Source: Sandarakinorhabdus sp.
GTDB taxonomy: Bacteria; Pseudomonadota; Alphaproteobacteria; Sphingomonadales; Sphingomonadaceae
NCBI RefSeq assembly: GCF_051860625.1
Contig: NZ_JBHYDQ010000016.1
Span: 4,156 to 68,155 of the forward strand
Reading direction: 5' to 3'
Length of the DNA: 64,000 nucleotides
A program made the position numbers and the translations under genes. Under the pieces are notes generated by a model that saw only the letters and a list, made by a program, of their open reading frames with translations, was not told the DNA's origin and did not search any database. Within the stretch, counting starts at the first letter, position 1. Each line of letters opens with the position of its first letter. Below are positions 5,133 to 8,908 of the stretch, piece by piece.

Positions 5133-5528
5133 TCAAAGCCCCTGTTCGCGAACGGCTTTCCTGCTCTGCCGGCGCCGGTGCCAGCGGTAGAGCGCCGGGG
5201 CAAACACATGATCATAGGCTGCGCTGGCCACATGGCTGATCCCCGGCAGCCCCACGATCTTCGCGAGCAAACGATAGCGCGGCATCTGCGACCACAACAC
5301 CAGAAACGCGGGCACGCCCGACACCAGCACACCATCATGTTGCACGTACAGATTGCGCGCGGCGGTATCGGAATCGAGCCCCCACCGCTCCCGCGCATCC
5401 GTGTTGAGGTCATCAAAACGGATCGTCAGGCCCGCTTCGTCGACATAGCGCGCATAATGCCCGATTTCGACGTTACAGACCGGGCATTGCGAGTTGTAGA
5501 GAACCGCCGTCTCAGAATTTTTGGCCAT
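5133..5528 (-). CDS. thiol-disulfide oxidoreductase DCC family (DUF393)
   Basis: ORF 5133..5702. Start moved to ATG 5528 (MAKNSETAVLYNSQCPVCN). N-terminal CxxC as in the DCC family. Confidence 0.7.
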   Translation of the reverse strand: MAKNSETAVLYNSQCPVCNVEIGHYARYVDEAGLTIRFDDLNTDARERWGLDSDTAARNLYVQHDGVLVSGVPAFLVLWSQMPRYRLLAKIVGLPGISHVASAAYDHVFAPALYRWHRRRQSRKAVREQGL

Positions 5529-5654
5529 GCACCGTGGATAGTGACAGACGGAAACTTCGCCATGGCGCACCTCGCCGCAGGGCAGAATGGTTCCGATTTC
5601 AGCCTGGTCAAGCGCCGCCACGCCGCGGTGGTCGAAGGCAAAAATGTCAAAAAA

Positions 5655-5672
5655 TGTAACTCGTAATTTACA
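5655..5672. promoter_or_regulatory. inverted repeat TGTAA-N8-TTACA, candidate enhancer-binding-protein site (copy 1)
   Basis: Read directly: aTGTAActcgtaatTTACAc, centred about 73 bp upstream of the -24 GG. The same motif occurs at the same distance upstream of the paralogous gene. Confidence 0.45.
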
Positions 5673-5734
5673 CTTCTGAACGTTCAGACCATCGCAACGC
5701 AAATAAAATCAGCATGTTGCTAGATTTTGGCAAC

Positions 5735-5750
5735 TGGCACGCCTTTTGCA
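5735..5750 (+). promoter_or_regulatory. sigma-54 (RpoN) -24/-12 promoter
   Basis: TGGCACgccttTTGCA: perfect GG/GC elements with canonical spacing, 57 nt upstream of ATG 5808. Confidence 0.7.
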
Positions 5751-5807
5751 TTTGTAAAACGTGTCGACTCAGATTGTCTGGTCGGAATTTTGCCAAAGAG
5801 GCTTCTG

Positions 5808-6596
5808 ATGAAAATCGCCAAGCTCATTCTCGCCGCTGCCGTCGCGGCTTCGGCCACCACCGCCATCCCGGCCTCGGCCGTTGAAGTCGTGTTCGCCAAC
5901 ATCACCGCCACCGGTGGTCAGAACTTCAATTTCCGCCGGGGCAACGTGAACACGGACACGGCCATCTTCCAGACGACGGCCACGGCCACGTCCAATACCG
6001 CCGGCGCCACCGACGTGCTGTTCTCGCTGAGCGGTAACACCGCGCCGTTGTTCCAGCAGGCAAAATTCCTGCTGCAGGGCACGACTGTGGGTGATGCCGC
6101 CGTCCTGAGCGCCGGCAACTTCCAGCAGCAGCTCGATCAGTTCACCTTCTCGATCCGCGCCAGCAATGCCTTCACCTATGGCGGCACCAATTTTGCTGCT
6201 AACGATATCTTGCTGTCGGGCAGCGTGCAGAACGCCAATCTGTCCGGCAACATCGGCGGCACCACTGGCGGGATCAACGCGTCGACCGCGGGCGGCGCCA
6301 CCATCCTGTTCGACCCGACCCCGCTGCTGACCTTCGAACCGAGCTCGCAGTTCGGCCTCGCCTTCACGTTGAACAGTGTGCTGCCCACCTTCGGGGCCGC
6401 GCCTGGTTCGGCATTGAATTCGTTCCGCTCGCAGATGAGCGGCGCGTTCCAGTCGGATCCGGCGCCCGTGTTCGCTGATCCGACGCCACCGGTTGTTTCC
6501 AGCATTCCTGAACCGGGCACCTGGGCGATGATGATCGTCGGCATGGGCCTGGTTGGCTTTGCCCGCCGCCGCCGCAATATCGCGGTTGCTGCCTGA
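5808..6596 (+). CDS. PEPxxWA-CTERM (PEP-CTERM) sorting-domain secreted protein, paralog 1
   Basis: ORF 5727..6596. ATG 5808 gives signal peptide MKIAKLILAAAVAASATTAIPASA. C-terminus IPEPGTWAMMIVGMGLVGFARRRR equals a PEP motif, TM helix and Arg cluster. Confidence 0.8.
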   Translation: MKIAKLILAAAVAASATTAIPASAVEVVFANITATGGQNFNFRRGNVNTDTAIFQTTATATSNTAGATDVLFSLSGNTAPLFQQAKFLLQGTTVGDAAVLSAGNFQQQLDQFTFSIRASNAFTYGGTNFAANDILLSGSVQNANLSGNIGGTTGGINASTAGGATILFDPTPLLTFEPSSQFGLAFTLNSVLPTFGAAPGSALNSFRSQMSGAFQSDPAPVFADPTPPVVSSIPEPGTWAMMIVGMGLVGFARRRRNIAVAA

Positions 6597-6619
6597 ACCG
6601 CGGTTCACGCCCGACAGCC

Positions 6620-6646
6620 AAGGGGGGCCGGAACGCCGGCCCCCTT
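6620..6646 (+). terminator. GC-rich hairpin after paralog 1
   Basis: AAGGGGGGCCGG-AACG-CCGGCCCCCTT. The U-tract is weak. Confidence 0.4.
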
Positions 6647-6692
6647 CCGCCGTGCCCGGCCGGCTGCAAGACGCCCGCCATTGTTGGTCTGT

Positions 6693-6710
6693 TGTAAACC
6701 ATATCTTACA
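6693..6710. promoter_or_regulatory. inverted repeat TGTAA-N8-TTACA, candidate enhancer-binding-protein site (copy 2)
   Basis: tTGTAAaccatatcTTACAc, centred about 74 bp upstream of the second -24 GG. Confidence 0.45.
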
Positions 6711-6773
6711 CCCATGGCTCAGCCGTGAATCGCAAATCCCGGTTTTTCAATAGCTTGGGTACATCTACCCACT

Positions 6774-6789
6774 TGGCACACCCTTTGCA
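6774..6789 (+). promoter_or_regulatory. sigma-54 (RpoN) -24/-12 promoter
   Basis: TGGCACaccctTTGCA, 56 nt upstream of ATG 6846. Confidence 0.7.
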
Positions 6790-6845
6790 TAATTGATTGC
6801 GACGGCCAGCAATGTTGGCCGACGAATTGCAGAGGGAGAACTCGA

Positions 6846-7640
6846 ATGAATATCACCAAGCTCATCCTGGCCGCTGCGGTCGCCGCGTCTGCCACCACCG
6901 CCGTCCCGGCCTCGGCTGTCGAAGTCGTGTTCGCCAACGTGACCGCCACTGCCGGCCAGAATTTCCACTGGCGCCGCGGCAACGTGAATACCGACACCGC
7001 CATTTTCAACACCACTGCAACGCCGACCAGCAACATCGCGGGCGCAACGTCCGTGCTGTTCTCGTTGAGCGGCAACACCACGCCGCTGTTCACGCAGGCC
7101 ACGCTTCTGCTCCAGGGTACCACCGTCAATTCGGCAGCGGTCGTTGGTGCCGGCAACACGTTCACCCAGAACGTTGATGAGTTCACCTTCACCATCCGTT
7201 CCGGCAGCGCTTTCAACTACGGTACCGTCTCGGTGGCGACCAACGATATCCTGCTGTCGGGTACGGTGGGCAACGCGATCATCACGGGGACCCTGGGTGG
7301 CACCTCGGGCGCGTTCAGCGCCTCGACGTTGGGTGGTTCGTCCATCATGTTCAACCCGACGCCGCTGTTGGCGTTCCAGCCCAACTCGGAATTCGGTCTG
7401 TCGTTCACCTTGAACAGCGTTGCGCCGGCCTTTGCAGTTGCCAACGCCTCTTCGGCGCTTTCCACCTTCCGGTCGCAGGGCAGCGGCGCTTTCCAGTCGA
7501 ACCCGGAACCGATCTTCGGCAGCCCGCTGCCGCCGGCGCCCCCGGCCATCCCTGAGCCGGGCACCTGGGCGATGATGATTGTCGGTATGGGTCTGGTGGG
7601 CTTCGCTCGCCGCCGCCGCAGCGCCACGGTTGCTGCCTGA
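6846..7640 (+). CDS. PEPxxWA-CTERM (PEP-CTERM) sorting-domain secreted protein, paralog 2
   Basis: Signal MNITKLILAAAVAASATTAVPASA. C-terminal IPEPGTWAMMIVGMGLVGFARRRR is identical to paralog 1. Collinear similarity throughout. Confidence 0.8.
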   Translation: MNITKLILAAAVAASATTAVPASAVEVVFANVTATAGQNFHWRRGNVNTDTAIFNTTATPTSNIAGATSVLFSLSGNTTPLFTQATLLLQGTTVNSAAVVGAGNTFTQNVDEFTFTIRSGSAFNYGTVSVATNDILLSGTVGNAIITGTLGGTSGAFSASTLGGSSIMFNPTPLLAFQPNSEFGLSFTLNSVAPAFAVANASSALSTFRSQGSGAFQSNPEPIFGSPLPPAPPAIPEPGTWAMMIVGMGLVGFARRRRSATVAA

Positions 7641-7664
7641 ATTTCAGCCAAACGCTGAATATGG

Positions 7665-7697
7665 AAAAGGGCCGGGCAACCGGCCCTTTTCTTTTTT
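7665..7697 (+). terminator. rho-independent terminator
   Basis: AAAAGGGCCGG-GCAA-CCGGCCCTTTT followed by CTTTTTTGG. Confidence 0.7.
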
Positions 7698-7741
7698 GGA
7701 AAACAACGCTCTACGTGAAGTAGGCCGCCCCCCAGCGTTGA

Positions 7742-8908
7742 TCAGGCGGCGCGGCGGCTCGACAACACAGCGGCATAGCCTGCGAACAATTGCGCGAAAT
7801 GCGCGTCGATCGTCCGCGCCGTCGGCGCCGCTGCCATTGCCGCCGATCGTAACGCCGGAATCTGCGGTATGGCTTGCGCCACCACGCCGGCCAGACTCGC
7901 GGCATCCAGCGATCGAAACGCCAAGCCAAGCCCAGGCGCCAACTGGTCATAAGCCGCACCTTCATCCGGCACGATCAACGGCAGGCCACTGGCGCGGGCT
8001 TCGGCGCAGGCAATGCCAAAGGTTTCGGCTGGCGCGCCGTGTACCATCATGTCGGCGCTGGCCAATATCCGCGCAAACTCCGCGCGGTCACGCACGGGGG
8101 CGATCAACTGGATATGCGGGTTTTCGCCCACGGCGCGCGCCACCGATGCCCGGGCATGGCCATCGCCCAGAATGATCAGGCCCAGCGGCCGGCCATAGCT
8201 GGCTGCGGTGACCCCGGCGATCACCATCGGCCATTGCTTTTCCGGGCTGTGGCGGCCGACGCCAATCAACAGGGTCGCCTCCGGCGGCAGGCTGCACTGC
8301 GCCAGCAATCGCGCGCGCAGCATCTCGTCGCGATTGGCGGGTGAAAACACCCCAGGGTCAACACCCAGCGCATTGTCGACAATCTTGGTGAGGCCGCCGT
8401 CGCGCAGCCGCTTGGACAGGCTGGGCGCCGCCGAAATCACCTGATCATAACGCGCATCGAGCCGCCGCAGATAGCGCCAGAACCAATCGAAACCGCGATC
8501 GATGGCATGGCGCGGCAGCAATCCATCCAGATAGCGATAAACCCAGGCCGACAGCGGCTCGGCATGCATGAACAGGCTGCGCGGCGCGGTGCCCGGCCAT
8601 TCCGCCACCGCAGCAGCACTGCCCCACGGCGACGAACATTCGATGAAGTCCGGCTGCTCTTTGTCCAGCACGGCATGAATGATGCGATCATTGGCGAAAT
8701 AGAAATAGTTGCGATCAAGCGGGAAGCGCGGGGAGCGCAGGCTGATCAGCCGCGCCCGTCCGACATGCCGCACAGCATCGTCCGCGCCTGGCACCACCAC
8801 CGTCAGCCGCACACCATGTTGTTCCGCCACTTCCAGCTTGCGGTGGGTATAGGTGCGTATCCCGCCGCCATCGGGCGAATAAAGTGCCGAGATGTCAACA
8901 ACATGCAC
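7742..8908 (-). CDS. GT4-family (GT-B) glycosyltransferase
   Basis: 388 aa, GTG start. C-terminal half has an E-x7-E-like ETFGIACAEARASGLPLIV pattern typical of GT1/GT4 enzymes. Confidence 0.8.
   Translation of the reverse strand: MHVVDISALYSPDGGGIRTYTHRKLEVAEQHGVRLTVVVPGADDAVRHVGRARLISLRSPRFPLDRNYFYFANDRIIHAVLDKEQPDFIECSSPWGSAAAVAEWPGTAPRSLFMHAEPLSAWVYRYLDGLLPRHAIDRGFDWFWRYLRRLDARYDQVISAAPSLSKRLRDGGLTKIVDNALGVDPGVFSPANRDEMLRARLLAQCSLPPEATLLIGVGRHSPEKQWPMVIAGVTAASYGRPLGLIILGDGHARASVARAVGENPHIQLIAPVRDRAEFARILASADMMVHGAPAETFGIACAEARASGLPLIVPDEGAAYDQLAPGLGLAFRSLDAASLAGVVAQAIPQIPALRSAAMAAAPTARTIDAHFAQLFAGYAAVLSSRRAA

Follow-up and report, generated by a model that had tools for sequence, protein, structure and literature searches.

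Classical promoters of the NtrC/NifA type (such as nifH and glnHp2) combine an activator site located upstream with an IHF bend (the IHF consensus being WATCAA-N4-TTR) and a -24/-12 promoter in a three-part layout, and at promoters that work by looping a dependence on the face of the helix is to be expected. The arrangement dealt with here is found upstream of two tandem genes coding for PEPxxWA-CTERM proteins in a 64-kb stretch of Sandarakinorhabdus sp. DNA (positions 4156-68155 of contig C16, from here on the window), and its closest described relatives belong to the PEP-CTERM systems of other bacteria. In the work of Haft, Paulsen, Ward and Selengut (2006; BMC Biol 4:29, PMC1569441), the proteobacterial PEP-CTERM genes are described as mostly single-gene operons located behind large intergenic regions (>200 nucleotides, nt). 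The promoter described there has a 17-nt motif 1 that ends in TTTACA and, 71 +/- 38 nt upstream of the start codon, a 17-nt sigma-54 motif 2. The spacer between the two motifs is 62.8 +/- 10.6 nt (only a mean and standard deviation being given), and across genomes the site follows the same phylogenetic pattern as PrsK, PrsR and PrsT.

The pepA gene of Aquincola tertiaricarbonis RN12 (BMC Microbiol 2023, PMC9850573) was no longer transcribed in an rpoN1 mutant; its transcription start maps behind a TGGCAC element, and PrsK/PrsR were linked to the phenotype. In Desulfovibrio vulgaris Hildenborough, Rajeev et al. (2011, PMC3333781) applied DNA-affinity-purified chip (DAP-chip) and demonstrated binding for DVUA0057, a predicted regulator of PEP-CTERM genes; their table of targets for this regulon flags predicted sigma-54-dependent promoters where these are present.

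The pattern of sequence elements in the window indicates that each of the two tandem genes is very probably driven by its own sigma-54 promoter, one of the PEP-CTERM box type that depends on an enhancer and is under the control of PrsK/PrsR. There are two exact matches to TGGCAC-N5-TTGCW in the 64 kb, both in the plus strand, vs. a chance expectation of 0.09, and none of 100 dinucleotide-preserving shuffles gave two (the whole genome, 3.2 Mb with 65% G+C, contains 15). In both cases the GG and the GC are 10 nt apart within the motif, the promoter is co-oriented with the gene that follows, the intergenic region is large (279 nt for promoter 1 and 249 nt for promoter 2) and the distance to the ATG is nearly the same, 57 nt to the start at 5808 and 56 nt to that at 6846. 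The preliminary description of this DNA had given the same coordinates and distances and had seen no further full match in the window, and both statements have held. It had also taken the two downstream genes for PEPxxWA-CTERM paralogues, and this has been borne out by the family models, since both open reading frames (ORFs) score 43 bits against NF035944 (PEPxxWA-CTERM, cut-off 35) and 37 bits against PF07589 (cut-off 20.7).

Upstream of each promoter there is a perfect inverted repeat, the PEP-CTERM box (Table 1). Read as the counterpart of motif 1, box 1 is TGTAACTCGTAATTTACA, with the 3' end TTTACA, and box 2 is TGTAAACCATATCTTACA, with the spacers listed in Table 1. Between the box and the promoter both regions carry an IHF-like site that departs from the consensus by a single mismatch. 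The two spacers also have in common the heptamer ATCGCAA (5691-5697 and 6729-6735, i.e., 44-45 nt 5' of TGGCAC), for which no obvious conservation was seen in the relatives. The transcription starts predicted from this layout would be located at ~5761 for promoter 1 and ~6800 for promoter 2. A consensus scan of 5500-7800 found no sigma-70-like promoter, and the Rfam search of 5400-7800 gave no meaningful match, only sub-threshold ones on the terminator. This intrinsic terminator is located downstream of gene 2, and the hairpin found after gene 1 may act as a weak terminator. The separate promoters, together with the terminator and the hairpin, indicate that the two genes are separate transcription units.

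Table 1. Features of the two tandem transcription units (positions are those of the window; weight-matrix scores in bits; bp, base pairs; aa, amino acids).
Feature	Position	Strand	Remarks
Predicted PrsR enhancer site (PEP-CTERM box 1), TGTAA-CTCGTAAT-TTACA	5655-5672		Perfect inverted repeat, 62 nt 5' of TGGCAC
IHF-like site 1, AATCAGCATGTTG	5707-5719	+	WATCAA-N4-TTR with one mismatch; ends 15 nt before TGGCAC
Sigma-54 -24/-12 promoter 1, TGGCACGCCTTTTGCA	5735-5750	+	20.2 bits, genome rank 4 (weight matrix)
PEPxxWA-CTERM paralogue 1	5808-6596	+	262 aa; signal peptide, all-beta passenger, C-terminal sorting signal
GC-rich hairpin after gene 1	6621-6646	+	11 bp, without clear T-run; candidate weak terminator
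PEP-CTERM box 2, TGTAA-ACCATATC-TTACA	6693-6710		Perfect inverted repeat, 63 nt 5' of TGGCAC
IHF-like site 2, TTTCAATAGCTTG	6745-6757	+	WATCAA-N4-TTR with one mismatch; ends 16 nt before TGGCAC
Sigma-54 -24/-12 promoter 2, TGGCACACCCTTTGCA	6774-6789	+	18.9 bits, genome rank 6 (weight matrix)
PEPxxWA-CTERM paralogue 2	6846-7640	+	264 aa; 70% identity to paralogue 1
Intrinsic terminator after gene 2	7663-7702	+	13-bp stem, then T-run

The same combination was found elsewhere in the genome. The preliminary description had proposed a scan with a sigma-54 position weight matrix, crossed with the PEP-CTERM genes, and we have carried it out over 2,938 genes (called with a simple codon-bias caller). 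The matrix is approximate and suited to ranking only, having been built from a consensus attributed to Barrios and colleagues (1999). Five of the six best-scoring sites of the genome were located 45-170 nt upstream of the called starts of PEPxxWA-CTERM genes; two of these start codons had been called too late, and better starts put all such sites ~45-57 nt upstream. Eight genes had an intergenic site scoring >= 17 bits in the 300 nt before them, six of these genes coding for PEPxxWA-CTERM proteins and two for others (Fisher p = 7e-11), and all six intergenic sites with at least 18 bits carried the box. The expected sigma-54 controls were recovered by the scan as well, i.e., flgB, the own promoter of the flbD-like activator gene and the gene divergent from pspF. 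We have defined as composite a box, TGT[AC][AG]-N7/8-TTACA, followed after 40-100 nt by a sigma-54 site that scores 10 bits or more. There were seven composites genome-wide and none in five shuffled genomes. These box-bearing sites are the strongest intergenic sigma-54 sites of the genome, and six of the seven precede PEPxxWA-CTERM genes with unrelated passenger sequences. The total of PEPxxWA-CTERM genes, from a C-terminal regular-expression search of the genome, was 37, and the six that were scanned against NF035944 all exceeded its cut-off.

The seventh composite is located at C18:39255-39160, in the minus strand, in the gap where truA and an alkaline-phosphatase-like gene converge (region C18:39016-39257). 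It consists of the PrsR box TGTCGGTGGGATTTACA, a 63-nt spacer and the sigma-54 promoter TGGCATGACATTTGCA. The only ORF found downstream has 36 codons (MLHWLQNNVRSARLLWIAGVVMGVLTGCAAGWLLAR) and contains a lipobox-like LTGC; conservation of this DNA was not detectable among 30 genomes of the same genus.

The module is conserved well beyond this strain. A contig search for related loci gave only one full-length relative, in a Sandarakinorhabdus metagenome-assembled genome (45% identity), and homologues of the window proteins were present in 16 of 24 genomes of the same genus, with identities of 32-50%. Approximately 22 of 26 such homologues had a sigma-54 site of 16-22 bits located 47-123 nt upstream, and at most of these sites the box ended exactly 63 or 75 nt before TGGCAC. 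In a promoter-anchored alignment of non-redundant sequences, conservation was concentrated in three peaks, aaaGTGTmgg..ttTTACAc, tCAatg.gTTa and T-TGGCAyG-N4-TTGCA-T. The second one is the IHF-like site, the position of which is thus conserved among the relatives.

We have also surveyed 41 Sphingomonadales genomes with the composite pattern TTACA-N50-85-TGGYAY-N5-TTGCW. The mean number of sites was 5.3 in the 33 genomes with a PrsR scoring above the cut-off vs. 1.0 in the eight without it (Mann-Whitney p = 3e-4), and the reversed pattern, used as a control across the same genomes, gave ~0 sites. Among the 150 sites listed, the box-to-promoter spacers (from the TTACA end of the box to TGGCAC) fell into narrow classes of 52, 63 and 75 nt, a few measured 84 nt and there was almost nothing between. 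These steps correspond to approximately one helical turn, which would be in keeping with an activator that has to keep to a given face of the helix with respect to the polymerase. Genome G015 (100% complete), in which PrsR is absent and there are no composites, serves as a natural control for the link to PrsR. At C7:7416-11578 of this genome four tandem homologues of the window proteins are found without a sigma-54 site (1-8 bits), which suggests that the same cargo family has been rewired to another type of promoter. The exception is G006 (93% complete), with five sites and PrsR not detected.

Apart from rpoN, which is split in this assembly (see below), the trans-acting factors that such a promoter would require are encoded intact in the genome. 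The genes of PrsR (TIGR02915, 660 bits, cut-off 503) and PrsK (TIGR02916, 540 bits, cut-off 300) are adjacent at C8:3443-6939, with prsK overlapping the start of prsR, in agreement with the statement in the preliminary description that this pair typically accompanies PEP-CTERM systems. Its suggestion that the two genes are targets of a sigma-54 enhancer-binding protein, possibly the PEP-CTERM regulator, likewise gains support, from the presence of a putative PrsR box at the canonical distance and of PrsR and PrsK in the genome. IHF alpha and IHF beta are both encoded. The only exosortase of the genome is XrtV (359 bits, cut-off 313), the locus of which also has a V-type EpsI (EpsI-V, 256 bits, cut-off 228), a priming glycosyltransferase and EpsE/F/G-like export genes. 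A strong sigma-54-interaction domain was found in five proteins, namely PrsR, PspF, two receiver-less FlbD/NifA-like activators and NtrX, and the GAFTGA motif is present in four of them including PrsR and missing in NtrX. In the region C2:280133-284989 the usual cluster dusB-ntrB-ntrC-ntrY-ntrX-hfq-hflX is found without ntrB and ntrC, so that dusB is directly followed by ntrY. With ntrB and ntrC gone and NtrX devoid of GAFTGA, the activators of sigma-54 would be limited to PrsR, PspF and the two receiver-less flagellar-type proteins.

From these elements we infer a circuit that includes the binding of PrsR and IHF, the two transcription starts and the dependence on sigma-54. PrsR, which belongs to the NtrC family and is the response regulator of the sensor kinase PrsK, would bind in its phosphorylated form to TGTAA-N8-TTACA, centred ~100 nt upstream of the transcription start. 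The IHF-like site, ~50 nt upstream, would bend the DNA and allow the PrsR oligomer to touch the closed sigma-54 holoenzyme at TGGCAC-N5-TTGCA. Hydrolysis of ATP by PrsR would then open the promoter, with transcription beginning at the two predicted starts, and the products would be secreted, after which XrtV with EpsI-V would sort them to the cell envelope or the exopolysaccharide layer.

That the sites are chance matches, or mere copies carried along by the tandem duplication while other promoters are in use, is hardly credible, although in tandem duplicates the two sites are indeed not fully independent. The upstream regions of the two paralogues align nearly without gaps, the similarity being restricted to islands; identity extends to 14 of the 16 promoter positions and to all 10 half-site positions of the box, whereas the remaining upstream segments have diverged to near-random (13-47% identity, with 2/15, 13/34 and 17/45 identical positions), and at four-fold third codon positions the identity is 55%. 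Motifs intact between diverged flanks indicate that they have been kept by selection since the duplication. Only 0.09 sites per window would be expected, the region is free of sigma-70-like promoters in the consensus scan, and the module is also found before non-homologous PEP-CTERM genes of the same genome and before distant homologues in 16 genomes. The explanation by duplication copies only was rejected on the conservation pattern and the orthologue data, and the comparative data effectively refute chance and copying together. The promoters could also be functional sigma-54 promoters that respond to an activator other than PrsR, i.e., one of the two receiver-less FlbD/FleQ-like proteins or PspF. 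There are three further GAFTGA activators in the genome, and the binding of PrsR to the box is a prediction from sequence. However, the box fits the site that was predicted for PrsR in 2006, the composites track the presence of PrsR over the 41 genomes, the flagellar and psp promoters of this same genome lack the box, and the homologues in the PrsR-less sister genome lack the module, all of which makes another activator very improbable.

The remaining alternative is that the promoters are intact but silent in this strain, due to a genuine frameshift in rpoN that removes region I; the module would then be a very recent relic, or be served only by a sigma-54 without region I. The single rpoN gene (C1:434750-436240, minus strand) is split over two frames between regions I and II: region I (MGLGPRLELRQSQQLVMTPQLQLAIKLL...) comes directly after lptB in one frame, and the remainder (acidic region II up to the RpoN box) is read in the adjacent frame. 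A tblastn search with the RpoN of six intact relatives gave two high-scoring segment pairs in different frames, meeting at residues 60-66. The gene call of the source corresponds to a product of 428 aa without the activator-interacting domain PF00309, whereas the closest homologue (97% identity) is intact with 499 aa, and all the relatives examined are intact at ~500 aa. The assembly is otherwise clean (89% coding density, 99.99% completeness), and the missing ntrB and ntrC between dusB and ntrY point to a reduced sigma-54 regulon. On the other hand, the slip is located within a short G/C run, and single-base slips in such runs are a typical artefact of sequencing or assembly; apart from it the two halves of rpoN are undamaged, and the seven box promoters and the flagellar and psp promoters all keep the consensus, so that any loss must be very recent. 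The undamaged halves and the consensus promoters point to a mutation that is very recent or else to an error of sequencing or assembly, and we consider a truly silent set of promoters unlikely. If the frameshift were real, the promoters could not be activated in this strain, while what they are would stay the same.

Together with the split rpoN, several other points weigh against control of these genes by PrsK/PrsR and sigma-54. PrsT (TIGR02917) was not found above its cut-off, the best match in the genome reaching 59.9 bits vs. 312, and the exosortase is XrtV, whereas PrsK/PrsR are usually named with XrtA. Only six of the 37 cargo genes (16%) carry the module and would thus belong to the regulon, which is a correction to the preliminary description. 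The box pattern was refined on the same sites that were afterwards counted, which makes the composite count partly circular, but this is eased because the TTTACA end and the 63-nt spacing had been predicted independently by the 2006 work. Finally, the present case is built on sequence only.

As for the cargo itself, both paralogues are predicted to be exosortase-sorted proteins of the surface or matrix. The model of paralogue 1 (AlphaFold, from an alignment of 13 sequences) had a mean predicted local distance difference test (pLDDT) score of 75.5, and predicts a signal peptide, an all-beta passenger of ~13 long antiparallel strands, a proline-rich linker and a C-terminal helix with the sorting signal. 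The passenger domain had no fold match in the PDB at E <= 0.001 (Foldseek) and no match in Pfam or NCBIfam.

A broader proposal can be put forward only tentatively, and we would give it somewhat less than an even chance. In Sandarakinorhabdus-like Sphingomonadales, PrsK/PrsR may have been attached to a PrsT-less XrtV system, and may control a small and fast-evolving subset of the cargo (6 of the 37 genes plus the 36-codon ORF) through a rigid structure of PrsR box, IHF-like site and sigma-54 promoter, in which the spacing (52, 63, 75 or 84 nt) is limited to steps of approximately one helical turn; the strain sequenced may besides be a natural frameshift mutant in region I of sigma-54. The analysis yields a fully specified predicted PrsR regulon for one Sphingomonadales genome, comprising seven sites with the coordinates of box, IHF-like site and promoter. 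The quantisation of the spacer by helical turns and the fixed IHF-like site are testable details of the contact between PrsR and sigma-54.

Comparison with the described systems puts this locus very close to that of Haft et al. (2006; PMC1569441). The preliminary description had expected a new defined set of cis-elements, but that set was already published there; the circuit and its elements have been partly validated by experiment, and the window is a clean new example that raises no new question. The likeness includes the end of motif 1, the spacer, the -24/-12 motif ~50-70 nt before the start, the adjacent PrsK/PrsR, the single-gene operons with a PEP-CTERM gene downstream (true of both window genes) and a profile of the cis-element that follows PrsR, here over the 41 Sphingomonadales genomes. 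The differences are the XrtV with EpsI-V, the PEPxxWA signal of the cargo, the lack of a detectable PrsT, and the proportion of cargo genes with the module, 16% here vs. 59% in the proteobacterial set of 2006. Further features found here are a fixed IHF-like site and, across Sphingomonadales, spacers of 52, 63 and 75 nt that differ by about one helical turn. No publication on XrtV or PEPxxWA was found in the literature collection searched, and the PEP-CTERM box of 2006 is found also with this undescribed sorting variant.

The pepA gene of Aquincola (PMC9850573) is similar in that it codes for a PEP-CTERM protein, has TGGCAC as the -24 element and has an enhancer located upstream. It differs in belonging to a betaproteobacterial system of the XrtA type with PrsT and in having the -12 element CTGCTT instead of TTGCA, and there the support is experimental. 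The DVUA0057 regulon (PMC3333781) belongs to a plasmid-encoded regulator of a deltaproteobacterium, for which there is no validated binding motif in that work.

The promoters of the window share the three-part layout of nifH and glnHp2. They differ from these classical cases in the activator and in the sequence that it would recognize, and in the number of activator sites, since one palindrome at about -100 appears to be sufficient here in place of tandem sites.

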